Shown: piece by piece, positions 4,231-47,523 of the stretch
How positions within the stretch are numbered: the stretch's first letter is position 1
How the letters are laid out: every line of letters starts with the position of its first letter
Source: an uncultured Bacteroidota bacterium
GTDB taxonomy: Bacteria > Bacteroidota > Bacteroidia > B-17B0 > Aurantibacillaceae
Length of the DNA stretch: 64,000 nucleotides
Reading direction: 5' to 3'
NCBI GenBank assembly: GCA_903834765.1
Contig: CAILKE010000016.1
Coordinates: 2,686-66,685 of the forward strand
Made by a program: the position numbers and the translations under genes
Notes under the pieces: model-generated
Told to the model about the DNA's origin: nothing
The model's database searches: none
What the model saw: only the letters and a program-made list of their open reading frames with translations

Positions 4231-4311
4231 GAAAAAAGGGTTAATCTATTGTATATCAACAAAAAATCCCCTTCAAATATTTGAAGGGGATTGATTTGAG
4301 GTCCCGTCCAG
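4231..4311. repeat. Left copy of island-flanking imperfect direct repeat (att site); ends in a 14-nt copy of the tRNA-Cys 3' end
   Basis: 4231..4311 aligns by eye with 47442..47523, including a hairpin. The last 14 nt 'gaggtcccgtccag' (4298..4311) are identical to 47510..47523, which lie inside tRNA-Cys. Confidence 0.75.
4265..4292 (-). terminator. Rho-independent terminator-like hairpin (probable original tRNA-Cys terminator)
   Basis: Perfect palindrome aatccccttcaaat/atttgaaggggatt. On the minus strand it is followed by a T6 run (complement of the a-run just left of the hairpin, ending at 4266). Confidence 0.6.
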
Positions 4312-4369
4312 AATAGAACCCTCGCCCTTTTTAGGCTGATATTCAATTGGTTAAGAGAATTATAAAATC

Positions 4370-4391
4370 TCAACTGCAACATTACTGCAAC
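4370..4391 (+). promoter_or_regulatory. Tandem pair of 11-nt ACTGCAAC repeats (putative arm-type integrase sites), island left end
   Basis: 'tcaactgcaac attactgcaac' at 4370..4391. 'ctgcaacattactgcaacaa' recurs at 47393..47412. Confidence 0.45.
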
Positions 4392-4479
4392 AACTTATTA
4401 AAAAGCAAATCTAAATGAGTGAATGATTTGATTACTGGAGGTTGATTAATTAACTTAGCTTTTTATAAAAAATAGGAAG

Positions 4480-4992
4480 TTGAAAGAGATTTTTGAAAAT
4501 ATATGCGAAATGGCCAAGAAAAATGGCTCTAATTTGTTTTGGGTTTGTTTTTCACTCCTAGTCCAAAATTCTTTTCCGAATTTCAAAATTCAAAATTTTG
4601 TAGGGTTTCTATTTAGAGTTTTTAATTATGTGGTTCTCTTTTTTATCTATATGCTAATTGATATATTAAAAGAATTTAGTCGGTCAATAGAATATTCTAA
4701 GACTACATCTTTATTAATTAGTATGCATACATTGAAAGCCTCTAAATTCGTATTAAATCAATCAAAAATCCTTATATCCAAAAGTGGGGAGTTTGCTGAA
4801 AGAAGTATGCAGTTTACCATAGTGGTTTTGGTTGCATGGCTAATTATTTTTAGATTAAAACTACATGATTGGGGTTTTAAATTAAGCCCACAAAAACTCA
4901 TGGCTGTAGCCGCTATAATTTTCATCGCAATTTGTATTGCAGCGCTTCCAAAATTGAAGCTTGGTACCCATCAACCGGATAAATCTTCATAA
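4480..4992 (+). CDS. Hypothetical membrane protein
   Basis: ORF with several hydrophobic segments (e.g. 'FTIVVLVAWLIIF', 'AVAAIIFIAICIAAL'). TTG start is uncertain (ATG at 4510). No recognisable motifs. Confidence 0.35.
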   Translation: MKEIFENICEMAKKNGSNLFWVCFSLLVQNSFPNFKIQNFVGFLFRVFNYVVLFFIYMLIDILKEFSRSIEYSKTTSLLISMHTLKASKFVLNQSKILISKSGEFAERSMQFTIVVLVAWLIIFRLKLHDWGFKLSPQKLMAVAAIIFIAICIAALPKLKLGTHQPDKSS

Positions 4993-5076
4993 GCAATACT
5001 GCCTAGTAGAATTCAATCACATTTTAATTTTTAAACTGTCTCCTGGTTATGGAGATTCACTATAACATATAAAAAC

Positions 5077-5628
5077 ATGAAAGAGCAAATAGTAGATTCA
5101 GACAAACATTATAGCCCAGAATTCTATAAACCAGCCCCCGCTGAAATTTTAGAGGATTATTACCCATTAATTGGACAAGTAGCATCACAATTTAACTATT
5201 TAGATGATTCATTAAGTGAAAGTTTAGTTGGATTTATTAACCCAGACGATGAGGAAATTGGATGGATTGTTATTGCTGGGATGCAGTTTAATCAAAAAGT
5301 TGATCTTTGGGAAAAAATATTGAAGTGGTGTATATATGATTCAGACTGGAGCGAAATAGACAAAAACTCTGCAACCCTTAAAGTAAAAGATATATCATTA
5401 GAGTTGAAAGACGTAGCTACTAAAAGAAATAAAATAGTTCATGCTGATTGGGAAGGAATAAACGACAAATTATTAGTAAAGACTAAAACAAAAAATAGTG
5501 ATAAAGGAGTTCAGCATTGTTACGTGAGTATTGAAAAATCAGAATTCGATAAAATAATAGATCAATTTGATACCTTATCTATTACATTGTATGATTTTGA
5601 TAAATATATTTTTGAAAAACTTAAATAA
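5077..5628 (+). CDS. HEPN-like domain protein (RNxxxH motif)
   Basis: 'ATKRNKIVHADWEG' fits the HEPN Rx4-6H catalytic signature. TAATG overlap with the next gene. Confidence 0.5.
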   Translation: MKEQIVDSDKHYSPEFYKPAPAEILEDYYPLIGQVASQFNYLDDSLSESLVGFINPDDEEIGWIVIAGMQFNQKVDLWEKILKWCIYDSDWSEIDKNSATLKVKDISLELKDVATKRNKIVHADWEGINDKLLVKTKTKNSDKGVQHCYVSIEKSEFDKIIDQFDTLSITLYDFDKYIFEKLK

Positions 5629-7013
5629 TGACAAGAATGAATTGCATATATTGTTCGAGACCTTTAGATAAATCTAACGAACATATTATTCCCGACTCAA
5701 TGAATGGTAGGTTGCAATCAACAAACATTATTTGTGCTGATTGTAATAATAAGTTTGGAAGGTATGTTGATCCAGTATTTAAAGAGATGTTAAATCCCTT
5801 ACTAATTGTATTTGGATTTGAAAATGCAAGGCATACACACGCAGAAGGTTTAGATAACGAAACATATAATTTTAGTAAAGATGGTAAACCATCTTATCTA
5901 AAAAATGAAGTTACCATTTCCCAAGAAGATAATAAAACTATACTACGCGCTGCGGGAAATCCAAAAGAAGCATTAAAAGCATTTCAGAAGCAAGCTAAAA
6001 AACTGAATGAGAGTGGAAAAGTATTTACTGGAGATATTACAGTAGAAAACATTGCTGAGTACAATAGTTTTCGAATTAAATGGGAAATGAAGGTTAACTC
6101 AAAATTAATTTTAGCTCTCAATAAAATAGCTACTGAATTTTATGCTCATTGCGAGTTAGATACGTCCTTAATTATTGATTTGTTATCAAGGATTCGAGGA
6201 TTAGACGAAAGCATTGACAATGTAACTTTCTGTAATTGGAATTGTGAAGTTCGGAAATACGCGGAAGATGAAGTAACACATTTAATAGTCTTAAGAAAAA
6301 ATAAGGATAATACCCTATATTGTTATCTGGAGTTGTTTAATGTTATTTGTGTTGCCATCCCATTATGTAATAACTATGAAAGCCAAGCAGACTTCGTGTA
6401 TTATCAAAATGCTCTTACAGGAGAAAAATTAACTAAAGAGATCATCTTTGAAACTGAAGTTGAATTCACAAACAATAGAGTTGGAAATTTTGACTTACTT
6501 ATTAATGCAGCGTGTGAAAGGCATAATCAAATTAAATTTAGAGAAATTTATACTGAAGAAACTAAAAAGATTCTAGAACAATACAAACTAGACATGGAGC
6601 AAGGGGTTATACCTGCTAACGATGAAAAATTTGTTTTAGAGAAACGGCTTGGAGCAATGATAGCTCAATTAAGTATTGATTTTCCTTATATGATAGAAGA
6701 TTACAAGGACGAGATGAATGACGATATGAACCATATTCACTCAAATCTCAGGGAAGATCAATATGATGATTTTTGCGAAAAATATAAATTTCTAATTGGG
6801 AAGAATGTGAAAATTGGCAATGATTTTTTCGTATTTGATTCATTTGTCAAATCGCCGTTTATTATAAGAAATAGCATACAGCTTTTGAAAGTCCATTTCT
6901 GCCTAACTAACATCAAGACAAATAAGCCGAAGTATTATCCCTACGAAGAATTTTTAAGAATGTTGAGCAATGCGGCTGATAAACTTAAACAGGAAGATCC
7001 ACCTGCAAATTAG
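5628..7013 (+). CDS. HNH endonuclease-domain protein with large uncharacterised C-terminal region
   Basis: N-terminus 'CIYCSRPLDKSNEHIIPDSMNGRLQSTNIICADCNNKFG' = CxxC ... (N)EH-I-I-P ... N ... CxxCN, an HNH/ββα-Me pattern. The remaining ~400 aa have no motif I recognise. Confidence 0.6.
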   Translation: MTRMNCIYCSRPLDKSNEHIIPDSMNGRLQSTNIICADCNNKFGRYVDPVFKEMLNPLLIVFGFENARHTHAEGLDNETYNFSKDGKPSYLKNEVTISQEDNKTILRAAGNPKEALKAFQKQAKKLNESGKVFTGDITVENIAEYNSFRIKWEMKVNSKLILALNKIATEFYAHCELDTSLIIDLLSRIRGLDESIDNVTFCNWNCEVRKYAEDEVTHLIVLRKNKDNTLYCYLELFNVICVAIPLCNNYESQADFVYYQNALTGEKLTKEIIFETEVEFTNNRVGNFDLLINAACERHNQIKFREIYTEETKKILEQYKLDMEQGVIPANDEKFVLEKRLGAMIAQLSIDFPYMIEDYKDEMNDDMNHIHSNLREDQYDDFCEKYKFLIGKNVKIGNDFFVFDSFVKSPFIIRNSIQLLKVHFCLTNIKTNKPKYYPYEEFLRMLSNAADKLKQEDPPAN

Positions 7014-7056
7014 CTTCGTTATCATCCATAAGATATATAAATAAAAAAACATACTT

Positions 7057-7278
7057 ATGGAAGATAATATAATAATGGTGAGTTATTTGAAAAGCGGAAG
7101 ATGTTGGTGGATACTAAGAGTATTTGATAACAATACATTTGATATTTATTTTACTAGCTCTCAACCAACTTATGATAAAGAGGTAAGAAGACAACGATAC
7201 AGCTTTGATGATTTTGATACAGTTATTAAAGTAGGAGAATTAAAAGATTGGATTGGTAGTATTATTGGTGTTAAATAA
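7057..7278 (+). CDS. Hypothetical small protein
   Basis: 73-aa ORF in an otherwise unoccupied interval; no motif. Confidence 0.3.
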   Translation: MEDNIIMVSYLKSGRCWWILRVFDNNTFDIYFTSSQPTYDKEVRRQRYSFDDFDTVIKVGELKDWIGSIIGVK

Positions 7279-7279
7279 A

Positions 7280-7828
7280 CTACAGTTTTTCAATAGCTGT
7301 TATGCCACTAATTTTAGCTTCAATTATCTTATCTATTGATTCACCGTTACGTTCTACGTTTAATATGAAGAGTGGATGGTGCAAGGTTAAAACACTGGCT
7401 GTAAATGTGTCACCGTTTTTAAGTTGACTGCGTTTTGAAGAAATAACTTTAAAACGTGATTTCCCAATAAACTCAATTATCACTTCTGCATTTGGCTTAA
7501 ACTTATATTCATATTGTTCACCCAACTTAAGTTTATTTGGTTTTAGTTCAATGATACTATTTGAACTTATGTTTTCGTTAGGATCAAACGGTTTTATTAA
7601 ATCTTCCCATGTAGAATAGCCTAAATAATTACTGATAACATCTAAAGTGTAAACACGAGCTTCTTGAGTTCCTTTTACAAATCCAAATAAGCGTCTTAAA
7701 GTCGAGGCAGAAATACGACAATTAGACTCAGAAGATATTTTATTTGCTAGAATATCACAATCACGAGAATACAAAACCTTGATTCCGCTTTTTTCTTCTA
7801 TACGTTTTTTAATTATTTCTGATAACAC
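7280..7828 (-). CDS. Hypothetical protein (possible N-terminal HTH)
   Basis: 182-aa ORF. The 'ISASTLRRLFGFVKG' region resembles a DNA-binding helix; no firm family assignment. Confidence 0.45.
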   Translation of the reverse strand: MLSEIIKKRIEEKSGIKVLYSRDCDILANKISSESNCRISASTLRRLFGFVKGTQEARVYTLDVISNYLGYSTWEDLIKPFDPNENISSNSIIELKPNKLKLGEQYEYKFKPNAEVIIEFIGKSRFKVISSKRSQLKNGDTFTASVLTLHHPLFILNVERNGESIDKIIEAKISGITAIEKL

Positions 7829-7977
7829 TTTGTAAAAATATAGTGCAATGTTGTCATTTAATCAGAATGGAATAAATGATACAAATGAATGAAATGAAAT
7901 TAATGAAAGAATTGCTTTCAATTTAGTTAAGTGTTTTTTCCAATCTTTATATTGAAGTAGATTCAATTTAAAAAAAC

Positions 7978-9267
7978 ATGAAAAAATCAATCTTAACAAT
8001 CGCAATTACTATGATTTCAACATTATCAATGTTGTCGCAATCATGGACACAAGTTGGCTCAGGATTATCATCAACTGTAAATGGATTATACACTGATGCT
8101 AGCGCAAACAGATTATATGCTACTGGAGCATTCACTGGAAAAGTTGCTTATTTATCTGGTTCAACTTGGAGTGTAGTTCCTTCTTATACTGGAACAACTG
8201 GTAATTCAATTTTATCTTATAGCAGTACTATAATTCCAATGGGAACTATAATTGTTTGCGCTGATAAAATTTATTCCTATGAAACTGGAGCATGGTCTGC
8301 GAGAACTACTGGTAACGCTTTGAGTAAGTATACAGCTTCATGTGTTGATAGTTTAACCGATTATTTATATGTCGCTGGATTACCTATAGGAGCATCATCA
8401 TATAAAATCTTCAAATATGATTTAGCAGATTTATATGTTGTGAGTGGAACATTAACTCCTGTTGCAACTTACACAAGTCCTAATTTTCCAACTTCAACTG
8501 GCAAAATAAATGATTTAAAAATTTTAAATAATGTGTTATATATTGGCTTAGAAAATTCAGGAGCAGCTTTAATGCAATTAGATTTATCAACCTCTTCTTT
8601 AACAACTGTAGGAACGCCAACAATAGCAGTAAATGTAAAATGTTTAAGTGTTAATTCAAATCAATTATATGTAACTGGAAGTTTTAATAGTTTTAATAAT
8701 CCAACACCTTCAAATAATTTAACATCATATAATGGAACTGCTTTTCAATCTTACGGTTCTCTAATGAACTCTGCTACATTAGGTCAAAATCAAATGTATA
8801 ATGGCAAATTATATGTTGCTGGTTCTACTAATACTCTTGTTAAAGTTGTTACTGGAACAAATACAGCTTCTCCAATTGTTAGTATATATCCAATGGCAAC
8901 AACAGGTTCAATTAATACAATGGCTGTTTATAATGGTGATTTATATGCAGGTGGAACTTTTACAGTCTCAACTGGTGGCTCTTCACATTTTGATAATATA
9001 GCTAAGTATAACAGCAGTGTAACAACAACATTAAATAATATGCAGCAATCAAACAATGTAAATATTTATCCAAATCCATTTACAAATAATTTGACTATTG
9101 ATGTCGAGAATAGTTACATTTTAGATGTATTTGATTATACTGGTAGAAAAATTAGAACAATCAACTGTAATGGTAAAACTGAAATAACATTAGAAAAGTC
9201 TGGGATTTATTTTATCGAAGTTAATAATGAAAATATACACTTTATTAAAAAAGTAATTAAAGAGTAA
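7978..9267 (+). CDS. Secreted protein with T9SS C-terminal sorting domain
   Basis: Signal peptide 'MKKSILTIAITMISTLSMLSQ'. C-terminus 'NIYPNPFTNNLTIDVEN...GIYFIEVNNENIHFIKKVIKE' is typical of Por_Secre_tail CTDs. Confidence 0.8.
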   Translation: MKKSILTIAITMISTLSMLSQSWTQVGSGLSSTVNGLYTDASANRLYATGAFTGKVAYLSGSTWSVVPSYTGTTGNSILSYSSTIIPMGTIIVCADKIYSYETGAWSARTTGNALSKYTASCVDSLTDYLYVAGLPIGASSYKIFKYDLADLYVVSGTLTPVATYTSPNFPTSTGKINDLKILNNVLYIGLENSGAALMQLDLSTSSLTTVGTPTIAVNVKCLSVNSNQLYVTGSFNSFNNPTPSNNLTSYNGTAFQSYGSLMNSATLGQNQMYNGKLYVAGSTNTLVKVVTGTNTASPIVSIYPMATTGSINTMAVYNGDLYAGGTFTVSTGGSSHFDNIAKYNSSVTTTLNNMQQSNNVNIYPNPFTNNLTIDVENSYILDVFDYTGRKIRTINCNGKTEITLEKSGIYFIEVNNENIHFIKKVIKE

Positions 9268-9273
9268 CATCTA

Positions 9274-9462
9274 TCACTGGCTAATTAAAGTAATAACAAT
9301 CCTATTTTCTTCACAGGCAATCGAAACAGATTGCCCTTGATGAAACCCCCAATCACTTAGCCAACGTCCACATAATTTGATTTCGGGTACAGTTTTGTGT
9401 ACTCTATTAAGAGTTAATTTATGTTTGGCATGTATCTTTAATTTTCTGCTAGTCTTCTTCAT
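9274..9462 (-). CDS. symE: SymE-family (AbrB-fold) type I toxin-like protein
   Basis: 62 aa. 'VPEIKLCGRWLSDWGFHQGQSVSIACEENRIVITL' matches the SymE/SpoVT-AbrB pattern (P.L.L.G.WL...GF..G..V.V....G.I.I). Confidence 0.6.
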   Translation of the reverse strand: MKKTSRKLKIHAKHKLTLNRVHKTVPEIKLCGRWLSDWGFHQGQSVSIACEENRIVITLISQ

Positions 9463-9577
9463 TTTATATTTAGCTGTTTCAAGCTAATCTATTTCATTCA
9501 TTCTATTGGAAAAACAGTATTGATTTTTTTGTGGAAAAATCTTCCACAAAAAAGATATATAAAATAAAAACAATACA

Positions 9578-9850
9578 ATGGAGATACCACTAAACTATCT
9601 AGTCGAGTTTTCTAAATCGGATATTATAGATTTAAAACTTATTACTGAAACACCTGATAAGCTTATTTTCAAAGAAACTAAAGTTCATTATGATTTAGAA
9701 ACAAACGAAAAATCAAAGCTATTGATCTATATTGAATTAACTCAAATGACAGATAAAGAACGAAGACATGAATTAATGAGGACTATCGAATTTAAAAGTC
9801 CTACTGAGGATGTAAGCAAAAATACCGACCAACTAAATGAAAAGATATAA
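9578..9850 (+). CDS. Hypothetical small protein
   Basis: First of four co-directional small ORFs (9578..10658); overlaps the next by 14 nt. Confidence 0.35.
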   Translation: MEIPLNYLVEFSKSDIIDLKLITETPDKLIFKETKVHYDLETNEKSKLLIYIELTQMTDKERRHELMRTIEFKSPTEDVSKNTDQLNEKI

Positions 9851-10037
9851 AGATTTTATTATTAAGTTTCATGAAGGAGAACAAGTAACACTGAATTATA
9901 AAAGTGAAGTTGATGGATTGGTTAGATATGAAACATCATTTGTAAACCCTACTAGTTTAAAAGAAGGAGAATATGTGAAACTTACTTTAATAGTTGAGCA
10001 CGCTCTTATCAATAAAGAAAATAAAAAAATCCACTAA
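9837..10037 (+). CDS. Hypothetical small protein
   Basis: 66-aa ORF abutting the next ORF (stop 10037, start 10038). Confidence 0.3.
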   Translation: MKRYKDFIIKFHEGEQVTLNYKSEVDGLVRYETSFVNPTSLKEGEYVKLTLIVEHALINKENKKIH

Positions 10038-10424
10038 ATGCTTCTATTAAAATATTTCGAAAACTTTAACGATGATGACAATAAGTTGTCAAAAAAAGTA
10101 TATGATCTACAAAATGATAATGAATTTAATGCTAATAAGTATGTTGAATCCGAAGAATCTTATCGCTTCGTTTATTATAGTGATGATTATTCACACTATA
10201 AACTGCAAATCTATCCGCAGTTTGAAATTTGTTTAATTACTTATCCCGATTCAGCATTTAACTGGACCGCTTGTAATGCAATTGAAAAAAATGAAGATTA
10301 CTTTAGGCAAGATGTTTTTGATAGTGAATTTTATGATTGGCTTTTATTTACTGTTACTAATTATAAAAGTATAGAAATTCCAAGCATAACATTTAAAACA
10401 ACAAAACTATTGTCCCGAAATTAA
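10038..10424 (+). CDS. Hypothetical protein
   Basis: 128-aa acidic/aromatic-rich ORF; no motif. Confidence 0.4.
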   Translation: MLLLKYFENFNDDDNKLSKKVYDLQNDNEFNANKYVESEESYRFVYYSDDYSHYKLQIYPQFEICLITYPDSAFNWTACNAIEKNEDYFRQDVFDSEFYDWLLFTVTNYKSIEIPSITFKTTKLLSRN

Positions 10425-10469
10425 TTCCAAATATTTAAAATAAATAGATTCGCTCATACTAACCATTGA

Positions 10470-10658
10470 ATGAATAATCTATTTAATAAAAAGAAATTTC
10501 AGCTAAATCAAATAGAAAAACTGGATCCAATGGTTGAATTATTTTTATTGGAAATGGTACTCGAAACATTAGTGGAAGATGAAAAATATGAGTTAGCCTC
10601 AATTATTTTTAACAGAATTGAGAGTGTTAAAAACACCTCAGACTTAGATAGGTCATAA
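10470..10658 (+). CDS. Hypothetical small protein
   Basis: 62-aa ORF; no motif. Confidence 0.25.
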   Translation: MNNLFNKKKFQLNQIEKLDPMVELFLLEMVLETLVEDEKYELASIIFNRIESVKNTSDLDRS

Positions 10659-10781
10659 ACTCTCAATCCTCTTTTAGTAGTGTAAAATAAACGTTACAAT
10701 AAATTGTCAAGGGTCAATGGAAGTAGGTACTTTAGCTATGAAACGCCTGTTAATAGGCATTAATATAAACTTAAAACAGAA

Positions 10782-11456
10782 ATGAAAATGAAAACAACAG
10801 AAGAACAACCGTTATCTCCAACGCAACAAACTTTGATCGATCACCTTGAAAAATTTGCCAATTCACCGGTAGATTTAATTGTTACAGCAACTGGATTAAA
10901 CAAATTATTAGTCACTAATTCTTTAAAAATATTATTGGAGAAAAAGAAGCTAGTTGAAGTTTCTGATACAACTCCTCCAGTATACAATTTAGTAGCTACT
11001 ACTAAAAAAATTACAAATATTGCTGAGAAAAAATCAGTCAAAACTGAAACAGATAAGACTTCACTACCAAAAACTGAAGTAGCAAAAAAGAAAGCTGATG
11101 ATGAAGTTGTTTTAAAAAAAGAAAATGGTCGTGATACTTCTAAACTGAAATTTAATGGAAATGAATACGGAAAAGGAAGATTAGTATTAGCTGTTGTAAA
11201 AAAATATATGGAAGATAATCCTAGAACAACTTTAACAAAATTGAAAGAAGTATTTCCTGACGAACTACAAAATAGATATGGAATCATACAAGAAGTTGCA
11301 AAAGCAAAAAAGTTAAGTGCTGAAATTGACCGTTTTTTCTTTAAGCCTGAAGACTTAATCAAAGTTGGAGATAAAAAAGTTGCTGTTTGTAATCAATTTG
11401 GATCACACAACCTTCCATTAAAACATTTTAAGTCTTTAGGATTTGTAATTAAATAA
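10782..11456 (+). CDS. Hypothetical Lys-rich protein (possible winged-helix N-terminus)
   Basis: 224-aa ORF followed by a clean terminator. N-terminal 'SPTQQTLIDHLEKFANSPVDLIVTATGLNKLLVTNSLKILLEKKKLV' looks wHTH-like. The central region is K/E-rich. Confidence 0.55.
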   Translation: MKMKTTEEQPLSPTQQTLIDHLEKFANSPVDLIVTATGLNKLLVTNSLKILLEKKKLVEVSDTTPPVYNLVATTKKITNIAEKKSVKTETDKTSLPKTEVAKKKADDEVVLKKENGRDTSKLKFNGNEYGKGRLVLAVVKKYMEDNPRTTLTKLKEVFPDELQNRYGIIQEVAKAKKLSAEIDRFFFKPEDLIKVGDKKVAVCNQFGSHNLPLKHFKSLGFVIK

Positions 11457-13468: not shown

Positions 13469-13469
13469 T

Positions 13470-26556: not shown

Positions 26557-26557
26557 A

Positions 26558-36216: not shown

Positions 36217-36222
36217 ACATTT

Positions 36223-39331: not shown

Positions 39332-39439
39332 CTCATTTTGAATGAACTGATATACATGATCAGTAATATCAGTGATGTCAACGTCTTGAACTTTTTTGCC
39401 ATGAATTTTAACAAGTCGTTTTTTATCTTCAATTTTCAG

Positions 39440-39748
39440 TCAGCAAAAACCTTTGTCACGTAAATGAATTAGTAATCCTTCATGGTGTATTGTAATTTCC
39501 TTTTTTGAGATTTGCCAAAAATCACCGAAAACGGTTTTTGATTCAGGTTCTATGACTTCAATTGTAGTAGGTGTAGTTTGATCTGTTGGTTCCGTTGTTG
39601 TTTCTGATTCAGGAATTATTACATCAGCAGTTGCTTGTGTAGTTAGATCTACTGGTTCATTTGTTATTCCTGATTCAGGTGTTACAGCATAATCAAATGT
39701 TGGTTTAGTTTGGTCATCTGACCCTGTTGAGTTTTTTGGAGTTTCCAT
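39440..39748 (-). CDS. Thr/Glu/Pro-rich ORF, probably the N-terminal part of the helicase gene
   Basis: 102 aa ending 'LIHLRDKGFC*'. In frame with 38090..39331. Confidence 0.4.
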   Translation of the reverse strand: METPKNSTGSDDQTKPTFDYAVTPESGITNEPVDLTTQATADVIIPESETTTEPTDQTTPTTIEVIEPESKTVFGDFWQISKKEITIHHEGLLIHLRDKGFC

Positions 39749-39787
39749 TTTAAATTGTTTTTTAAATTAATTAATAAGGTAAATGTT

Positions 39788-39807
39788 GGGCAGGCTATTG
39801 CCTGCCC
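39788..39807 (-). terminator. GC-rich hairpin downstream of the DUF3127-like gene
   Basis: gggcaggc-tatt-gcctgccc (8-bp stem), conspicuous in AT-rich DNA. The T-tract is weak. Confidence 0.4.
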
Positions 39808-39816
39808 AAAGGCACT

Positions 39817-40155
39817 TTACACTTTTTCTGTTAAGGTTTCTTTTGTGTTTTCTACTTTAGTAACTACTAAATCAGTAACTACTATTTCAATACTGGACGT
39901 TCTTAATACATTAAAGCATTTAGTTTGACCATCTTTCGCTGTGTAAGATTTACCGTGAATTTCAAAAGTTACTTCTACGATACTATTTAATGGTATCGCA
40001 TCTAGTTTTTTAATATCATTGCCGAGTATTTCAAATGATAAATTTGGATAAGCACCGGGGCTCAGTCGAGATACTATGAATTCTTTTTTGGTCAATTTGC
40101 TACTGAATTCTTGAAATGCTCCTACATGAAATAGGATTCCTTTAATTTTAAACAT
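39817..40155 (-). CDS. DUF3127-like OB-fold protein (putative ssDNA-binding)
   Basis: 112 aa. 'MFKIKGILFHVGAFQEFSSKLTKKEFIV...LSFEILGNDIKKLD...VEVTFEIHGKSY' matches the layout of DUF3127 proteins in Bacteroidota phages and elements. Confidence 0.55.
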   Translation of the reverse strand: MFKIKGILFHVGAFQEFSSKLTKKEFIVSRLSPGAYPNLSFEILGNDIKKLDAIPLNSIVEVTFEIHGKSYTAKDGQTKCFNVLRTSSIEIVVTDLVVTKVENTKETLTEKV

Positions 40156-40198
40156 GTTGTTTTGTTTTTTAATTGTTAGACATTACTTTAATTTATAT

Positions 40199-40221
40199 GC
40201 GCCTGCTTTCAGTGCAGGCGC
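40199..40221 (-). terminator. GC-rich hairpin downstream of 40234..40929
   Basis: gcgcctgc-tttcagt-gcaggcgc (8-bp stem). Confidence 0.4.
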
Positions 40222-40233
40222 ATAATGGTTACA

Positions 40234-40929
40234 TTATCCGATAAGGAGTTTTGCCACCTGTAACTTTAATACTTTACCTTTTGCAGGTAATGCTATTGCT
40301 TTTTCAGCCTCTGTTTTAGGGAAATAAAGTGCTCGACGTGAACCTTTACTCTCACCTTTAAGTACATAACCAACTAGGTGTTTACCGTTTACTAAAACAA
40401 GGGTTGCTTGGTCTCTGTGCTTAGTGCCATAAAACCTAAAACCAGAAAAACCTAATTCAACCATAGTTGAACCTATTAATCCACCTTCTGAAGCTTTGTC
40501 GCTATTACGTCCTATCGGAAGTATAATAAAGGTTCCATTTTTTGGCTGGTATGTTTTAACAGCTCTCGTTAAATCCGTATTAGCCACGAACCTTGAGCCA
40601 CTTCCTCTGCCTGCTGAATCAACAGTTTCAAAAACAACATTTTCGTTAATGAAGTCGAACTTTGCAGCATCAAGATAAGGCATTTCAATGCCACCATCGG
40701 TTTGATGATTAAGCGGTATGTTACGTACAGGTAATTCCTCTGAAATAGGATTTATCTGATTTGTAACATTTGAAGCTACACTTACCTCCTGCACGTTATT
40801 AGTTAAAGCAGTACTGTCCGTTGCAGGGCTTTCAGGTGCTTTGTTTTCTACTGGTGTGTTATTTTCACTGCCAGTACTTTGGTTTTCGTCTACTACTGAT
40901 GAGTTGACCTCTTTTGTTTGTTCTTCCAT
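40234..40929 (-). CDS. Hypothetical protein (disordered N-terminus, structured C-terminus)
   Basis: 231-aa ORF within the replication module; no recognisable motif. Confidence 0.5.
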   Translation of the reverse strand: MEEQTKEVNSSVVDENQSTGSENNTPVENKAPESPATDSTALTNNVQEVSVASNVTNQINPISEELPVRNIPLNHQTDGGIEMPYLDAAKFDFINENVVFETVDSAGRGSGSRFVANTDLTRAVKTYQPKNGTFIILPIGRNSDKASEGGLIGSTMVELGFSGFRFYGTKHRDQATLVLVNGKHLVGYVLKGESKGSRRALYFPKTEAEKAIALPAKGKVLKLQVAKLLIG

Positions 40930-41019
40930 GATGGATTTTTTTAGTTATTATTTTATTTAATTTTCATTCAACGAATTGAATAGGTGGCGATTTATTTTTT
41001 AGCATCGTTAGGGCAATAT

Positions 41020-41718
41020 TTAAATGTTGGTTATTGATTTGCGTTTAAGCATCCATAGATTTTGCTGACAGTGTTCAGGGAAGAAAGGTGACATAAAACC
41101 TGAAAGCAGTTCAGGGCTATAGTATGGAGTTAACCCTTCATACATCTTTATCTGCCAATCATTCATAACAGGTTTAAAATCTTCAGTTGAACCTAATACA
41201 CCGAACTTATTTACTACTGAGAAGTAGGTTGTAATAAACTTATCTATGTCCTGAGCCGTTATTAAATCAGTAGATTTCGGAAGTAGTATGTAATAAGTAG
41301 CATCAGGGTTACCGCACATATAGAAGTTCTGCATGTAATAGTAAAGGTTGATTCTACTTATTGTATCAGGAACATTTAATGCAACAACTGTGTCTGCACC
41401 AATATTTGAGAAGGTGCTGTAATCATCACTTCCTGATGAAAGATCTGCTACTATGAATGTCGCCCAAGGCAGTTGTTTCCATTTGCTACTGTTAGCTTCA
41501 ATAATAGATGGGTTCGTGTCCATACCGATATAACTACCGATTGCAGTTCTATTCCGATATTCTAATTCTAAAAGGCCACCATCGCCGCATCCAAAATCAC
41601 ATACGCGTTCACCACCTCTTGCATTTTGTAAAATTGGTGACCATTGTAGGTATTTAATGAAATTTAAGATATTGTAAGCGTGATTGCTTAATAATTGTTT
41701 TTGTTCAGTTGTCTCCAT
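41020..41718 (-). CDS. Class I SAM-dependent methyltransferase
   Basis: Motif I 'VCDFGCGDGGLLE' and post-I 'YIGMD'. No DPPY/NPPF motif seen, so the substrate is unknown. Confidence 0.7.
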   Translation of the reverse strand: METTEQKQLLSNHAYNILNFIKYLQWSPILQNARGGERVCDFGCGDGGLLELEYRNRTAIGSYIGMDTNPSIIEANSSKWKQLPWATFIVADLSSGSDDYSTFSNIGADTVVALNVPDTISRINLYYYMQNFYMCGNPDATYYILLPKSTDLITAQDIDKFITTYFSVVNKFGVLGSTEDFKPVMNDWQIKMYEGLTPYYSPELLSGFMSPFFPEHCQQNLWMLKRKSITNI

Positions 41719-41870
41719 GTTGTTTTTTAAATTTTAATATTATTAGCTATAGGATTTCCCCCTACAAATTTTTCAATAATATTTCTGGAATTTTAAACGG
41801 TAGTGCTACAGAAGTACTACGGAAGTTTCTGCTACATTTTCTTTATTACCTTTGTGATAAAAAAAAACAC

Positions 41871-42953
41871 ATGACTAATTTTAGCCCAAACACACTATTA
41901 ACACAAATAAGTAACTATAAAAACGAGTTGTTTAAGAATAGCTGTAAGGAATTATTTCGTATTAATGATCTGTACGATAATGTAGATGGTACTACGAAAA
42001 TTGTAGGAAATAATTTTAATTATTTTATTCCTTTTTCTTTAGAGTTACAGGACTACGTTACAAATTATACAAATCAAGGCAATGAAGAGTTAAACTCACT
42101 ATTATTTGCTAACCTTAAATTTCTGAAACTAGAAATAGATAGAACTTGCACTGATGAACATATAACGCAACTAATAACTAACTTAAAAACAGATTTACTA
42201 AATAACGATGGACATTATATTGATATAGTCGATGAAGAAGGGGAGGTTCACACTTATATAGTCGACGAGGATGGGTATACATATTATACAGATCAAAGTC
42301 ATGAAGAATACTGTATCCAAATACTATTTAAAATTGCGTTAAAAAATATACGAGAAATGTTAGGAAATTACAGTAGTTACTTTGATGATAACTATTCGCT
42401 ACTACCGACAATAAAAGCAGAATCAGTATTTCCACCATTAGCTAATCTTAGTGTTAATCAACTTACATTTAATTGTGCTATCTCTATACCACATAAACTC
42501 TACTGGGACGAAGAAATAATAAAATTTGAAAGTTTCTTCAGTAAAAAAAATATAGTTCAAAATATAACACTTATGAATGGTGAAGTAGACAGAGTTAAGA
42601 TTTTGTCAATTTTAAAAGAAGTGTTTTTAGTTGGAAATTTTGGTGGGATGTTAAAAAATGATGACAATACTGGTTCTGTAGACAATAGACCTTTTATGAT
42701 TTCAGAGGGATTAAAATGGAATGGTGGAGCACCTTTATTTGCAAATACATTTTCAGAATTAATAAAATTTGAAAATAGAAAGTCAACAAGTAACACTACC
42801 GTGTTTTGTAATTTTAGTAAAACAGGAGTTCGTGATACAATTGTAAAAGTTTTGTATTTCCTATTTTATATTGATAAACAAACGGGAGAAAGGATTGCAC
42901 CTTCATATCTGAAACAAGCATTTAAGGATTATGAAGCAGATCAAGGTTTGTAA
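41871..42953 (+). CDS. Hypothetical protein
   Basis: I prefer the ATG at 41871 ('MTNFSPNTLL'). The track's N-terminal 54 aa look like translated promoter DNA. Followed by a clean terminator. Confidence 0.55.
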   Translation: MTNFSPNTLLTQISNYKNELFKNSCKELFRINDLYDNVDGTTKIVGNNFNYFIPFSLELQDYVTNYTNQGNEELNSLLFANLKFLKLEIDRTCTDEHITQLITNLKTDLLNNDGHYIDIVDEEGEVHTYIVDEDGYTYYTDQSHEEYCIQILFKIALKNIREMLGNYSSYFDDNYSLLPTIKAESVFPPLANLSVNQLTFNCAISIPHKLYWDEEIIKFESFFSKKNIVQNITLMNGEVDRVKILSILKEVFLVGNFGGMLKNDDNTGSVDNRPFMISEGLKWNGGAPLFANTFSELIKFENRKSTSNTTVFCNFSKTGVRDTIVKVLYFLFYIDKQTGERIAPSYLKQAFKDYEADQGL

Positions 42954-43004
42954 TATTTATTTTGAAAAATCAGAATTACCCTAACCGCTGTCATACAACT
43001 TCCG

Positions 43005-43034
43005 AAGCGCTACTGTATAGGTAGCGCTTTTTTT
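43005..43034 (+). terminator. Rho-independent terminator
   Basis: aagcgctac-tgtatag-gtagcgctt followed by ttttt. Confidence 0.7.
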
Positions 43035-43052
43035 ATGCTATAATTTTATCCT

Positions 43053-43967
43053 ATGAATAATAACATGGATATAGCTAAAGGGCATCAGATGCCAATTCAG
43101 CCGGAGATTACCGCCGAACAAAATCAGGTAATGGAAATAACTCCAGTCGAAGGCCTCCCAATTGTAGACGTTTTAGAAGAATGTAAAAAAAGGATTCGGG
43201 ATATGAATATATCGCAATTACTTTTAAGTCTGAAAGAGAAACAAGTTTGTTTTTACTCCAATGGTAGTTGGGTTATTGCAAATGAGGAATTATTAATTGA
43301 CCTTATTGCTGATACAATTGTTGATCCAAAAGTAATTTCAGTTTTATGTAATGTTATTCCTTCAGTAATTGAATTTAGTGATTTAAACGGGGAGCTAGTT
43401 TTTAAACTAGATAAAAATTTAAATGATATTGAGAATATTGTTATGGATATTGTTAATGAATTTGATTTTGATACAACCGCATTTGAGCTAAGAGGACATC
43501 GAATAGATTTTGGTTTGAATAAAACTGAAAGTTTCACGATAAAAGAAGATTTAATAATCGCTGCAAAAAGCACACTATATGAATTGTTTTGTTCTGAAAA
43601 ACTATGGTGTAATCAGGTTGTTAAAACTTTTGATATTATTAAAACTGGCATAGTAGATAGAGGTCATTTCATTGCCCAAAGAGATATTAATAAAATTGAA
43701 TTGTTGTTTGCTTTTACAGATTTAAGCGCTGATGATGCAAATGATATTGAATCTATTCGTGTAGAATATAATAAAAAAGAAATTGGAGATTGGAAATGTA
43801 CCAATTACATTTTAGCACTTGAAGATATTCAATGTTATGTTGCAAATGGTAGATACTCAAATATTCAGGATTGTATAAGGAATAGCCATTTTCAAAATTG
43901 TAACATTGAGGATCAAGAACAACTGAATGATATGGCTAGTTTGTATTTATATAAGCCTGAACAATAA
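43053..43967 (+). CDS. Hypothetical protein
   Basis: 304-aa ORF; no motif. Confidence 0.5.
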   Translation: MNNNMDIAKGHQMPIQPEITAEQNQVMEITPVEGLPIVDVLEECKKRIRDMNISQLLLSLKEKQVCFYSNGSWVIANEELLIDLIADTIVDPKVISVLCNVIPSVIEFSDLNGELVFKLDKNLNDIENIVMDIVNEFDFDTTAFELRGHRIDFGLNKTESFTIKEDLIIAAKSTLYELFCSEKLWCNQVVKTFDIIKTGIVDRGHFIAQRDINKIELLFAFTDLSADDANDIESIRVEYNKKEIGDWKCTNYILALEDIQCYVANGRYSNIQDCIRNSHFQNCNIEDQEQLNDMASLYLYKPEQ

Positions 43968-44009
43968 ATATCAAATTCATAATCCTATTATTTTATACAG
44001 CAACAGAAG

Positions 44010-44357
44010 GTGTTTTTCAACGACTGTTGCTATTGTATAATTTATTCCAATCAAACAAAAAGCATAAGATTGCTTAACGATAATAACATAAACAACGTCA
44101 TTGATAAACTAAATGCTCTACAGGCATCAGTGAATATTATTGACGAAAAGTTACAGAAGCTTCAAAAAGAGAGGATCACTTTTGGTGAGTGGGTTTCTGA
44201 AAAAGAAGTTATTGCTGTAACAGGTTTGTCACGTGCTACATTACTAAAACTGCGAAATACAGGTAAAGTAAGTAGCAGTACAATTTCCGGCAAACAGCTT
44301 TATTATCGCTTAAGTGACTTTAAAAAATTATTAGATAAAAACGAATTAGAAATGTAA
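44010..44357 (+). CDS. Excisionase-like helix-turn-helix protein
   Basis: 'EWVSEKEVIAVTGLSRATLLKLRNTGKVSSSTISGKQLYYRLSDFKKLL' is the MerR/excisionase-type HTH usually found just upstream of Bacteroidota integrases. The true start is probably downstream of the GTG at 44010. Confidence 0.6.
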   Translation: MFFNDCCYCIIYSNQTKSIRLLNDNNINNVIDKLNALQASVNIIDEKLQKLQKERITFGEWVSEKEVIAVTGLSRATLLKLRNTGKVSSSTISGKQLYYRLSDFKKLLDKNELEM

Positions 44358-44358
44358 C

Positions 44359-45627
44359 ATGGAATTAATACAAAGCATACCAATGTCAATAAAGTTTACT
44401 TTGGAGAAATCTAGAGATAAAAGTAAAGATGTGTACTGGGTTTATGCTCGGATAATTTGTAAAAGAGAACGAGTATTAATCTCTTTAAAAATGGAAGCAC
44501 AAATAGATGACTGGGATTTCGCAAACCATCAATTTGTTCAATCTAAAAAAATAAACCTAGTTAAAAATAATAAGTTGCGTTCAATTGCTGATGAGTTAAC
44601 GCAAATCTACCTTGACTTAAAACGTACAGGTTCACCAATTTCATCTAAAGTAATTAAGAATATCTACAATGGAGATATAACACAATCATCTGATGTTGAG
44701 TTTATGACGTTTTATAACAAACACTTAGAAGAACTCAAGCTAAAAACAAATGAATATACAGATGGGGTTATAGGGCATTATGTTAAAACACAAACTCATT
44801 TAGTGAGATTCTTAAAGCTGAACGGCCTCTCAAAAATTAAAATGAATGAATTAAGCAGAAAATTTATAGAGCGTTTTGAGAACTATTTATTGAGTACACC
44901 TAATGCACACACCGGTAGACCTATGAATTCTAATACATCTGCTACATACATTAGAAAATTAAGAGCTACTATAAATGCTGCATATAAAATGGAAGTGATA
45001 CCAACTAATCCGTTTGTTAGTTTCAAAATGCATCCAATTAAGTCTGCAAATAAAACTGTATTATCACAAGAAGAACTTGATGTCCTAAATAGTCATGCTT
45101 TAGATGATAATTTTGCTTTAGATAAAGCAAGAAAAATGTTTTTATTTTGTTGTGCAACTGGCTTACGTCACTCCGATGCTACGCAACTTCATAATGACAT
45201 GATTAGAAAAGATGAGGATGGTGTTTATTGGATTTCTATGAGTCAACAAAAAACAGGTGACAATGTTGAAATACCACTTTCTAACATAGCTGAAAAAATT
45301 TACCATGAGTTTGAAGCACACCGCATAGCAACTGGATTTGCCTTACCAATGCTGAGCAATCAAAAATCTAATGATGCATTAAAAGCTATATCTAAAAAAG
45401 TAGAAATAAATAAAAACATAAGCTGGCACGTTGCGAGGCATACATTCGCTACCAATAGTTTGAATCATGGTGTTGATATAGCAGCAGTAAGTAGTTTAAT
45501 GGGTCATCGTACAATTAAAACAACTCAAATCTATGGTAAGGTAACACGTAAGCGTAAAGCTGATGTAATTAAGTTTTTAAATGCAAAAACAGCGGTAGCA
45601 AAACCTAAAAAGAAAAATGGAAAGTAG
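44359..45627 (+). CDS. int: Tyrosine-type site-specific integrase (Arm-binding N-terminus + SAM-like + catalytic domain)
   Basis: 'GLRHSDA' (R), 'WHVARHTFAT' (HxxR), 'LMGHRTIKTTQIYGKV' (H...Y). Confidence 0.92.
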   Translation: MELIQSIPMSIKFTLEKSRDKSKDVYWVYARIICKRERVLISLKMEAQIDDWDFANHQFVQSKKINLVKNNKLRSIADELTQIYLDLKRTGSPISSKVIKNIYNGDITQSSDVEFMTFYNKHLEELKLKTNEYTDGVIGHYVKTQTHLVRFLKLNGLSKIKMNELSRKFIERFENYLLSTPNAHTGRPMNSNTSATYIRKLRATINAAYKMEVIPTNPFVSFKMHPIKSANKTVLSQEELDVLNSHALDDNFALDKARKMFLFCCATGLRHSDATQLHNDMIRKDEDGVYWISMSQQKTGDNVEIPLSNIAEKIYHEFEAHRIATGFALPMLSNQKSNDALKAISKKVEINKNISWHVARHTFATNSLNHGVDIAAVSSLMGHRTIKTTQIYGKVTRKRKADVIKFLNAKTAVAKPKKKNGK

Positions 45628-45758
45628 GCTCTTATAGTATTATTTAATTAAAATCTAAAAAATCGAAGTTAAGTTAATGTATAGTATCAATCTTTAATAT
45701 TCTTTTTGTTTTTACCGTATATTTAACTGATTCATTGCTTCTTTTCATTTTGTTAATT

Positions 45759-47126
45759 TTAATTTGAACCTTTACTCTTGCAATATTTATTTAAAGCATC
45801 AGTTGCAACTTTAAGTCCTTTTTCCGAAGCCTCTTTCCAATCCTTACAAGCACCATTATCCTTTAAATTGTATTTAGAAAAACCCCTATAATACAAAGCA
45901 GTTACTGAAAATTGAGAGTTAGATTCTATTGCTTTAGTTAGATCAGGTAAGGCTTCTTGATATTTCCCCAAATAACCAAATGCCAATCCCCTTTGTAAAT
46001 ATGTCCAATAATTTTCTTTGTTTAATTCAATAGCTTTAGTATAATCATCAATTGCCCCTTGATAATCTTTCGATCCACATTTAAGCAATCCTCTGTTTGC
46101 AAAAGCAAGGTCATTTTTTTTGTCATTCTCAATTACATAGTTGTAATCAGTCATTGCCAGTGATAACTCTTTCTTTGCCTGATAAACATTCCCACGTTCC
46201 ATTATGGCCCTAATGTTTTTTGAGTCATTACCAATAACTTTATTTAAATCGCTTAAAGCGTCATCTAATTGGTTTATTTTCAGTTCGAGAACTGCTCTGT
46301 TTATTAAATACTCAACATTGTTAGGTTGTAATTTGATGGCTTTAGTGTAGTCTTTTAGAGCAGACGCATCATTACCTAATTCTGCACTTGTTGCTGCACG
46401 ACCATTCAAAGCCTCATCATTATTTTGATCTAATTCAATCGCCTTATTGTAATCCTCAATAGATGCTTCAAGTCTTGCCATTAATCCTTTGCAATGCCCC
46501 CTTTGATAATAAGCTTCGGAAAATGTTGGGTTCAAAGAAATTGATTGACTAAAATAGTCAATTGCTTCATCGAATCGTTCACCTGTTTTTAGTCTCATTC
46601 CTTCTTTAAAGTAAGAGGTTGCTTGCGAGTTGTCATACTCTTTCATAACCTTTTCTTTTTTTAAACGATACTCTTCTAGTTGTTTATCATTAACGCTTAT
46701 TTCCGTAATATAAAAACTATACAAACAACCATTTAAAAACACTTTTGCTCCTGGCAAAAAAACAATTTCATCGTTCTTAGAGAGAGTAATCTGAAATATG
46801 AATTTATCTGTAATGTCAGCCTTTTTGTATTCGCTTAAATAAACAGGAAAAACCTTAATGTTTGGTCTTTCTCCCTCACAAACTCCAATCAATTTAAGAT
46901 CTTTAATAAGTTGTGCTGAGCAAAGAGAACCCATTTGATTTGGATTAAAAGAAAATTCGCACTTCGTGCTTTTTCCGGTTTTTAAAATCCAAACTTTACC
47001 ACTTGGAACAGTTTGATAATAATCTGATGATAATAGTATTTCGGTTTGAGACCACGCTTTTGTGAAAACAAACAAAATAAGAATTCCGCAGAATTTTACA
47101 ATATTATTTCTATAGATAGTAATCAT
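45759..47126 (-). CDS. TPR-repeat protein with N-terminal signal/anchor
   Basis: 'ILILFVFTKAWSQ' leader. At least 7 TPR units ('AYYQRGHCK', 'ALNGRAATS', 'YLINRAVLE', 'AFANRGLLK', 'TYLQRGLAF', ...). Confidence 0.8.
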   Translation of the reverse strand: MITIYRNNIVKFCGILILFVFTKAWSQTEILLSSDYYQTVPSGKVWILKTGKSTKCEFSFNPNQMGSLCSAQLIKDLKLIGVCEGERPNIKVFPVYLSEYKKADITDKFIFQITLSKNDEIVFLPGAKVFLNGCLYSFYITEISVNDKQLEEYRLKKEKVMKEYDNSQATSYFKEGMRLKTGERFDEAIDYFSQSISLNPTFSEAYYQRGHCKGLMARLEASIEDYNKAIELDQNNDEALNGRAATSAELGNDASALKDYTKAIKLQPNNVEYLINRAVLELKINQLDDALSDLNKVIGNDSKNIRAIMERGNVYQAKKELSLAMTDYNYVIENDKKNDLAFANRGLLKCGSKDYQGAIDDYTKAIELNKENYWTYLQRGLAFGYLGKYQEALPDLTKAIESNSQFSVTALYYRGFSKYNLKDNGACKDWKEASEKGLKVATDALNKYCKSKGSN

Positions 47127-47370
47127 ACAATGACTTATTTCAGGTTTAATTGTTGACGCAGTAGGGATAGAATAAACAACCGTCTCCTTGGTCTTGACTA
47201 TTTAATTCAGTTGTTTTCATAACACTAATCCTTTTAAGGCTTAAATTTAACGTATCTAAATTTAAGCAATTAATAACCTACGGTAAAAACAAAAACTACT
47301 ATAGTAAACAAAAAAAGGTATGCTTATAAAACACTAAACTATAAATAGTTCAAAAATATAAAAAGGAACC

Positions 47371-47410
47371 ATTACTGCAACATTTTCGATTACTGCAACA
47401 TTACTGCAAC
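47371..47410 (+). promoter_or_regulatory. Three direct copies of ATTACTGCAAC (putative arm-type integrase sites), island right end
   Basis: Copies at 47371..47381, 47389..47399 and 47400..47410, in the same orientation as the 4370..4391 pair. Confidence 0.45.
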
Positions 47411-47441
47411 AATTTTAAGCAGAAATAAGCGGAAGTAAGCA

Positions 47442-47523
47442 GAAAAAAGCGTTAATCTATTGATTATCAATAAAAAATCCCCTTCATTTAGTATGAAGGG
47501 GATTAGTTGGAGGTCCCGTCCAG
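47442..47523. repeat. Right copy of island-flanking direct repeat (overlaps the tRNA-Cys 3' end)
   Basis: Aligns with 4231..4311. Identical 14-nt core at 47510..47523. Confidence 0.75.
47476..47504 (-). terminator. Terminator hairpin following tRNA-Cys (island-borne copy)
   Basis: aatccccttcat-ttagt-atgaaggggatt. On the minus strand it is followed by a T run. Confidence 0.6.

Follow-up and report, generated by a model that had tools for sequence, protein, structure and literature searches.

A probable 43-kb integrative island in the 3' end of the only tRNA-Cys gene of an uncultured Bacteroidota bacterium

The window analysed here is the whole 64,000-nucleotide stretch of DNA, contig C16:2686-66685 of a metagenome-assembled genome (MAG) of an uncultured Bacteroidota bacterium. 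It contains a single tRNA gene, tRNA-Cys(GCA), detected by ARAGORN at 47508-47581 on the minus strand and scored by Rfam at 55.7 bits as a tRNA. This copy is the sole tRNA-Cys of the genome (34 tRNAs; 3.63 Mb, 79 contigs). Between the tRNA gene and a displaced fragment of its own 3' end lie 43.2 kb (4312-47509), which we named E1 and which very probably represent one integrase-defined integrative island in the 3' end of the resident tRNA-Cys. It is an ordinary kind of island, here mapped base by base.

The tRNA-Cys gene and the two ends of E1

The features of the two ends and the recombination genes are given below in window positions, with attL and attR as the left and right attachment sites and P and P' as the arms of the element's own site, attP.

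4163-4226, no strand: spacer left of the repeat, of which 4183-4226 is a candidate decayed copy of the P arm (AACCATT..TTACTTGCTGCAGCATT)
4227-4297, minus strand: T_L, displaced terminator, with a palindrome remnant at 4246-4260 and a hairpin at 4265-4292 (repeat, fold)
4298-4311, minus strand: attL core, the displaced tRNA-Cys 3' end (exact 14-nt match, two copies only)
4312-4400, plus strand: P' arm, with predicted arm-type sites ACTGCAAC at 4373-4380 and 4384-4391 (21-nt identical block)
44010-44357, plus strand: excisionase-like HTH_17 protein, candidate recombination directionality factor (Pfam, PHROGs; 70% amino acid identity to the G093 element)
44359-45627, plus strand: tyrosine integrase (Pfam Arm-DNA-bind_5, SAM_5 and Phage_integrase)
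47374-47410, plus strand: P arm, three direct TTACTGCAAC predicted arm-type sites (kept in L132, L134 and L138)
47417-47471, plus strand: three AAGCRGAA repeats (47417-47444) and the palindrome CTATTGATTATCAAT (47457-47471) (conservation in relatives)
47476-47509, minus strand: T_R, element-borne terminator (stem 47476-47487 / 47493-47504) and CCA-encoding spacer (fold; the same sequence ends the sister element in L132)
47508-47581, minus strand: tRNA-Cys(GCA), with the attR core at 47510-47523

The core is the 14-mer GAGGTCCCGTCCAG, which is exact at 4298-4311 and 47510-47523; a search that allowed 3 mismatches found no third copy in the window. Read on the tRNA strand, it runs from within the T arm through the 3' strand of the acceptor stem and the discriminator U to the first C of CCA. 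The two copies have the same orientation, with the intact tRNA gene at one end and a 3' fragment of the same gene at the other. The core is part of a longer imperfect repeat of 85 nt (4227-4311 against 47438-47523), in which 74 of the 86 aligned columns are identical (86%). Full copies of this repeat number two across the whole genome, the remaining matches being short terminator-like stems.

On the tRNA strand, each repeat copy folds into a strong intrinsic terminator, a hairpin 8 nt past the tRNA end whose 12-bp stem is G+C-rich and is followed by a U run. The fold of T_R has an energy of -21.8 kcal/mol (z = -6.1) and that of T_L -20.7 kcal/mol (z = -4.3), and no shuffled sequence equals either. 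The island-supplied tRNA end encodes CCA (47508-47510; TGG on the plus strand), which neither the displaced host end (4295-4297) nor the tRNA-Cys genes of relatives do, the host copies reading TTG, TAG or similar. The stretch 4255-4319, which runs through the core and 8 nt further, is 89% identical to the terminator-tRNA junction of G004, a congener of another species, and T_L thus appears from its sequence to be the pre-integration terminator of tRNA-Cys.

Close to each end, within E1, are direct repeats of the motif ACTGCAAC: the left end has two (4373-4391) and the right end three (47374-47410). Exact matches to it within the window are confined to the two arms. A 21-nt block (4373-4393 and 47392-47412) is the same at both ends and occurs nowhere else in the genome. 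Read from left to right, the right arm holds the three TTACTGCAAC sites, the three AAGCRGAA repeats, the palindrome, the terminator hairpin and the core. Within 4400-47300 neither the core nor the terminator nor the arm sites were found again. The repeat may plausibly extend left to ~4183 as a decayed arm, the alignment of 4183-4226 to 47365-47402 being statistically weak (57 of 1000 shuffles score as well).

The integrase gene lies 1.9 kb from attR, and the catalytic R, HxxR, H and Y (IY nucleophile) are present in its sequence and in the alignment with XerD. Both the integrase (Int) and the excisionase-like (Xis) gene are intact. The restriction of the predicted arm-type sites to the two ends is consistent with the arm-binding domain of the integrase. 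An arm-binding domain together with repeated arm-type sites in both attP arms defines a lambda-type heterobivalent system, and E1 would appear to possess both.

An earlier note on this DNA, made from the letters alone, had already described the tRNA-Cys(GCA) at 47508..47581 on the minus strand, the exact recurrence of its last 14 nt at 4298..4311, a terminator-like hairpin in both copies, and a tyrosine integrase and excisionase-like helix-turn-helix protein near the tRNA-proximal end, all of which we recovered. Its flanking similarity of ~80 bp and ~85% proved slightly longer. The note had also named the occurrence of the core and flanking similarity at many places in the genome as evidence that would count against it, and the genome-wide search returned the two full copies only.

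Relatives, target specificity and the empty site

Five relatives of the integrase, at 50-90% identity, were examined, and all lie 0.15-1.9 kb from a tRNA-Cys 3' end. In genomes of the family this integrase type adjoins tRNA or transfer-messenger RNA genes, the closest one (G093, 50% identity) being located 150 nt from the 3' end of tRNA-Cys. A large protein collection yielded further relatives in L132/L133 (90%), L134/L135 (68%) and L138 (66%), all adjoining tRNA-Cys. This demonstrates the specificity of the integrase clade for tRNA-Cys.

The sister element in L132 shares with E1 a backbone (38256-45639) that is 88% identical in nucleotides, as well as a right arm and terminator at ~90%. At its end the three arm sites are the same, and so are the AAGCRGAA repeats, the palindrome, the hairpin and the GATTAGTTGG-AGGTCCCG junction. 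Its host has a tRNA upstream region of another clade and an aminotransferase gene that is only 77% identical to the one in this genome, so that the divergence of the element (12%) is smaller than that of the host (23%). As the same arm repeats, terminator and tRNA 3' end occur in the different host of L132, these parts of the attachment region belong to the element. Hosts without the element have other terminators at tRNA-Cys. The proposal of the earlier note that the element brings its own tRNA 3' end and terminator is therefore upheld by L132 and by the differing terminators of uninfected hosts.

The G093 element has a homologous arm with variant repeats, in which TTACTRACAC stands in place of TTACTGCAAC. 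The AAGCRGAA repeats are kept in L132 and G093 and more loosely in L138, and the palindrome is kept in L132 and G093 and absent from L138. Both are predicted accessory-protein sites. In the P' arm of L134/L135 the core-to-site spacing is the same as in E1.

The earlier note had suggested a search of related genomes for an empty tRNA-Cys site, and such a site was found in G004. When 4255-4311 was joined in silico to 47524-47691, the product aligned ungapped across the joint to the uninterrupted tRNA-Cys locus of G004, with 91.7% identity in 230 columns, which bears out integration into the tRNA-Cys 3' end. Among the genus loci scanned, 27 of 28 have an intact tRNA-Cys and lack this island.

Taken together, these observations allow a mechanism to be proposed. 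The heterobivalent tyrosine integrase would bind the predicted arm-type sites of both arms (three in P, two in P'), and strand exchange would take place within the 14-nt core common to attP and the tRNA. Given the fact that attP carries its own tRNA 3' end, with the encoded CCA, and an intrinsic terminator, integration would rebuild a complete, terminated tRNA-Cys at attR, and the old 3' end and terminator of the host would be displaced 43 kb to attL. E1 may still be mobile today.

Further traces of this element family were seen beside tRNA-Cys in other hosts. L134 and L139-L144 carry scars in which a core has been displaced and is accompanied by a terminator and by a P' arm with ACTGCAACATTACTGC. 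L134/L135 hold a complete attP-like joint (P arm, terminator, core and P' arm) next to the tRNA (L134, 12875-13140), and the contigs L139-L144, from one host (J-host), hold an attL-plus-P' remnant at about 215-385. These six independent contigs all stop ~550 nt upstream of the aminotransferase gene and ~380 nt past the tRNA 3' end. The tandem scars indicate that repeated integration and decay at tRNA-Cys is normal for the element family.

Backbone, cargo and flanks

The genes of the backbone and the adjacent resolvase are listed first.

32180-32881, minus strand: small serine recombinase of the resolvase family (Pfam Resolvase, 1.8e-21)
34646-35971, plus strand: 441-aa backbone protein (tblastn, 73% amino acid identity to the G093 element)
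36223-38124, minus strand: family A DNA polymerase, PolA, with 3'-5' exonuclease and polymerase domains (Pfam 1e-135, NCBIfam; 65% amino acid identity to the G093 element)
38090-39748, minus strand: superfamily 3 (SF3)/D5-like helicase gene with an in-frame TGA at 39440-39442 (phrog_28855, 8.6e-58)
39817-41718, minus strand: DUF3127 single-stranded DNA-binding (SSB)-like protein, 231-aa protein and S-adenosylmethionine methyltransferase (backbone genes common to G093 and L132)

A backbone of ~11 kb, which includes PolA, the SF3 helicase, the SSB-like protein, the methyltransferase, Xis and Int, is common to relatives in other hosts; the region shared with G093 and L132 is 34646-45639. The 441-aa protein had no match in Pfam, NCBIfam or PHROG, and profile searches assigned no family to the backbone open reading frames (ORFs) at 40234-40929, 41709-42953 and 43053-43967. 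PolA has no 5' nuclease domain, and no phage relative above 41.5% amino acid identity was found for it. The helicase is patchy, being present in 11 of 185 family genomes. Its codon at 39440-39442 is TGA here and TGG (Trp) in the sister element of L132, with the protein otherwise more than 90% identical; from this comparison the TGA appears to be a nonsense change, not a gene boundary. The replication module is probably defective unless the stop is read through, because the helicase gene carries this codon. L138 also has a resolvase, about as far from its integrase.

A separate observation concerns the arrangement of the replication genes. In the G093 element (contig C266; L130, 15634-17988) the helicase C-terminus and PolA form one open frame of at least 784 aa, unlike the window, where they are two overlapping genes in different frames.

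The cargo, which is variable and mostly anti-phage defence, amounts to ~30 kb and fills the left two thirds of the island.

4480-11456, plus strand: small ORFs, an HNH_5 nuclease protein (5628-7013), a protein with a type IX secretion system (T9SS) tail (7978-9267) and a PDC-S57-like protein (10782-11456) (Pfam, PADLOC, PHROGs)
11858-24130, plus strand: type I restriction-modification operon, with hsdM at 11858, hsdS at 15512 and hsdR at 21128 (Pfam, PADLOC)
13470, 16693 and 19755, plus strand: inserts in this operon, namely a MORC-like GHKL ATPase (13470) and the Mokosh-like MkoA kinase-helicase (16693) and MkoB (19755) (Pfam, PADLOC)
24844-31613, plus strand: PDC-M27-like candidate defence genes, M27A at 25420, PLD-type M27B at 26558 and SNF2-type helicase M27C at 28542 (PADLOC, Pfam)
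45759-47126, minus strand: TPR-repeat protein, placed between the integrase and the right arm where the cargo varies (relatives compared)

The slot between the integrase and the right arm holds a PDDEXK_9 gene in L132 and is empty in G093. Searches with Pfam and PHROGs profiles among ORFs of at least 70 aa, smaller and a few overlapped ORFs being left out, found no capsid, portal, terminase, tail or lysis family, and profiles of Pfam, NCBIfam and PHROGs found no relaxase and no type IV secretion or coupling family among these ORFs, although remote homologues may have escaped among the ORFs without a family. Small terminase, capsid-redirecting and helper-sensing genes were likewise not recognised by the profile searches. 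Since no virion or conjugation genes were found, transfer would have to depend on helper or passive routes. The description of the interior genes in the earlier note as defence, mobility or hypothetical genes stands, and these genes are patchy in relatives. Right after the T9SS-tailed gene lies a 62-aa ORF (9274-9462, minus strand), which has a SymE_toxin Pfam match in public annotation and may be a small cargo toxin.

The flanks of E1 are made up as follows.

1504-4160, plus strand: left chromosomal flank, histidine kinase (TPR, HisKA_3 and HATPase_c) and LuxR-type response regulator (Pfam)
47582-47691, no strand: P1, the resident tRNA-Cys upstream region of the clade-a type, and ~14 nt like the aminotransferase gene start (93% to G004)
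47692-55271, no strand: imported 7.6-kb block, outside the island (synteny with G012, G117, G154 and G022; mosaic joint)

The two-component DNA of the left flank was found in 30 of 53 genus genomes, none of which carries the island, and every match ends at 4160-4185. In G012 the response regulator is followed by genes which here sit on contig C19 beside another integrase-bearing island. That island (C19:51150-54994) has an integrase at 53786-54994 and an integrase C-terminal fragment at ~51250-51390, contains an adjacent pair of genes for 107-aa and 339-aa proteins, and borders directly on the genes found after the response regulator in G012. As a guess, the pair could be a putative HipBA-type toxin-antitoxin.

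On the right, 27 of 28 genus loci have the tRNA-Cys upstream of the methionine-aminotransferase gene (window 55187-56332) and divergent from it, the 28th ending at a contig edge. The alignment of the joined flanks to G004 continues into ATGCAGATAAATTC at the start of the aminotransferase gene. In the window, a 7.6-kb block separates the two. It contains two LamG/T9SS genes, a LytTR regulator, a histidine kinase, the terminator T0 (54983-55019), a decayed tRNA-Cys (55020-55087), a second copy of the upstream promoter region (P2) and the aminotransferase gene as far as its nt 85. T0 is a weakened terminator, orthologous to that of G012 and others. The 68-nt pseudo-tRNA aligns to tRNA-Cys better than 1995 of 2000 shuffles, and it has no Rfam tRNA match. 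Its body is ~50% identical to the live gene and its own flanks are still 80-85% like G012, which indicates that the body eroded faster than the flanks. P2 (55087-55183) is 79% identical to P1 (47581-47677), and its conserved CAAAAATA box reads CTAAAATA.

The origin of the block was traced with clade-informative sites, at which G004 and J-host (clade a) share a base that G012, L132 and G014 (clade b) lack. The interval 55089-55271 is b-type at 11 of 12 sites and 55272-56339 is a-type at 48 of 55 (Fisher p = 2.6e-7), which places a sharp mosaic joint at ~55272, at codon ~29 of the aminotransferase gene. As the b-type block lies inside consecutive a-type sequence (P1 and the gene start, then the gene from nt 86), 47692-55271 is the insert. 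The mosaic also identifies the island-side tRNA-Cys as the resident gene, and the integration model given earlier therefore stands. A single insertion of a clade-b copy of the neighbourhood between the tRNA promoter and the aminotransferase gene, with the incoming redundant tRNA then decaying, is the likely course of events. One end of the insertion would have been homologous, inside the aminotransferase gene, and the other illegitimate, a pattern known from homology-facilitated illegitimate recombination (PMC3240628). A tandem duplication of the tRNA neighbourhood was ruled out, the two copies being of different clades.

These results qualify the view of the earlier note that the genes outside the repeats are ordinary core genes. 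It holds for the left two-component DNA and for the aminotransferase beside tRNA-Cys, and fails for the right flank with its imported block. Two small pieces mark the left edge of this block within 47807-47911, one of 37 nt like the part of the LamG genes that codes for the T9SS C-terminus, and one of 76 nt like a LamG-array intergenic region of G009/G010; both are remnants. A candidate homology of 47678-47985 to the aminotransferase 5' region past ~14 nt was rejected as not significant. Further right, seven to eight tandem coding repeats of ~225 nt (59592-61733) occur in the gene of a 1326-aa LamG/CHU_C protein (58644-62624).

Competing explanations, known systems and significance

Several results weigh against the reading of E1 as a single integrative island. 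The nearest empty site belongs to another species, with no island-free genome of the same species at hand, and the joint between the response regulator and the tRNA terminator was not seen in any other genus genome. The genome is a MAG, and the helicase of the element carries a nonsense codon, which suggests that its replication module is now defective. The composition of the island is indistinct from that of the genome: its GC content is 31.0% against 32.3%, and 12% of random 43-kb segments are at a larger tetranucleotide distance than the island, so that the skew check advised in the earlier note was uninformative. Look-ups of the island end genes among contigs returned only integrated contexts and no 47523-4312 circular joint. 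A pattern scan of JGI metagenome contigs found none of the four possible junctions, a looser terminator-plus-core pattern recovered only the G093 element, the scan with attachment-site motifs gave one true match and four chance matches, and a genome-contig scan with integrase peptides found nothing.

We somewhat favour the whole 43 kb as the present mobile unit. The element proper could instead be the right 12-15 kb only, from the resolvase or 34.6 kb through attR, with the left 28 kb of defence genes left by earlier tandem integrations whose internal attachment sites have eroded. Only 34646-45639 is common to G093 and L132, GC by block varies within the island from 27% to 33%, tandem scars are common in the family (the joint of L134/L135, the remnant of L139-L144), and 4183-4226 resembles the decayed P arm of an earlier element, all as such accretion would predict. 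However, 4400-47300 lacks internal core, terminator or arm sites, and 4373-4393 in the P' arm matches the P arm at 21 of 21 positions, from which the present integrase would be expected to act at the outer ends. The comparison with related elements also covers contigs that do not reach their left ends; a search for the left end of the related element found no core copy on the G093 contig C266. We therefore consider accretion unlikely.

An improbable alternative is that the live tRNA-Cys and its promoter arrived with the island as donor flank, the ancestral copy beside the aminotransferase gene having decayed in situ. It draws on the usual position of tRNA-Cys directly upstream of this gene in the genus, where this genome has the pseudo-tRNA, and on the order of kinase, T0, tRNA and aminotransferase common to G012, G117, G154 and G022. 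The clade sites contradict it: the pseudo-tRNA, T0, P2 and the gene up to nt 85 are clade-b (11 b to 1 a) and the rest of the gene is clade-a (48 a to 7 b), and the sequence on either side of 47692-55271 is consecutive clade-a, which is the signature of a block insertion, not of a tRNA cassette. It also needs two events instead of one. An assembly chimera at the 74-nt tRNA sequence, which is common to many community members, could also have created the adjacency of the island and its right flank, given that the genome is a MAG and that a same-run Logan contig breaks inside the tRNA; attL was reproduced at 100% in two independent assemblies and attR in one, up to that break at 47565. T_L (89%) and P1 (93%) nevertheless match one continuous G004 locus, as expected only if the island split one locus, the LamG gene occurs on four long contigs with mostly the same neighbours, and the genome has no other tRNA-Cys, which makes a chimera very improbable. 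A prophage or conjugative element is scarcely credible: the integrase, excisionase, polymerase and helicase occur in temperate phages too, but the profile scans of ORFs of at least 70 aa found no virion, lysis, relaxase or type IV secretion family, and the best phage match to PolA remains at 41.5%.

The single integrative island can be compared with known systems. The Islander logic for islands in tRNA genes asks for three things: a whole tRNA gene and a displaced fragment of it, in the same direction, at opposite ends; a tyrosine integrase gene inside and close to an end; and related genomes in which the target is uninterrupted (PMC4383910). All three were tested and all three were found for E1, which resembles Islander islands in its tyrosine integrase near one end, tRNA 3' target, gene restoration and displaced fragment. 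It differs in that the shared segment reaches ~70 nt beyond the tRNA end, with the whole terminator and palindrome, and in that the island copy adds an encoded CCA which the host copies lack. The tycheposons of Prochlorococcus integrate repeatedly at one tRNA gene, and older elements are pushed inward and decay to scars (bioRxiv 10.1101/2020.12.28.424599). In a comparison of architecture only, E1 shares with them a tRNA-targeting integrase at the end, an adjoining small replication module, variable cargo, the lack of recognised capsid or conjugation genes, and tandem scars. The host phylum is different, a family A polymerase and SF3 helicase take the place of primase-type hallmark genes, and the integrase is an arm-binding one of Bacteroidota.

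Phage-inducible chromosomal islands and other phage satellites, again compared by architecture only, are alike in having an integrase, an excisionase, their own replication genes, no full virion set and anti-phage cargo. E1 is larger (43 kb against the usual 10-20 kb) and has no recognised capsid-redirecting, small terminase or helper-sensing genes. Among Bacteroidota elements, NBU1 is a mobilizable element of Bacteroides with a tyrosine integrase at a tRNA 3' end. For a genomic island of Riemerella anatipestifer, integrase-dependent precise excision was shown experimentally (PMC6764341). E1 is like both in its Bacteroidota tyrosine integrase at a tRNA 3' end, and differs in integrase clade, in target tRNA and in that no relaxase or oriT mobilisation genes were found.

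E1 provides a clean, fully delimited example of the parking and exchange of defence genes in uncultured freshwater Bacteroidia, in which an element-borne terminator and CCA now end the only tRNA-Cys of the cell. The attL, attR and candidate arm-site sequences are usable for testing a Bacteroidota integrase, and the definition of an 11-kb polymerase-helicase backbone, common across genera, gives context to the cargo and the replication module. The mosaic right flank demonstrates that vertical inheritance of genes outside island repeats should not be assumed, and that a redundant copy of an essential tRNA can vanish within a few kb of the retained one.

More tentatively, E1, its sister in L132 and the G093 element could form a lineage, so far undescribed, of integrative elements in freshwater Bacteroidia that replicate themselves and have no capsid. 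These tycheposon- or satellite-like elements would combine a family A polymerase, an SF3 helicase and the 441-aa polymerase-like protein with a tRNA-Cys target that they re-tail with their own CCA and terminator, and would serve as vehicles that assemble 30-kb defence islands. If this is true, turnover at tRNA-Cys would drive local rearrangements, including the capture of foreign neighbourhoods and the fast erosion of a redundant tRNA bearing the attB site.

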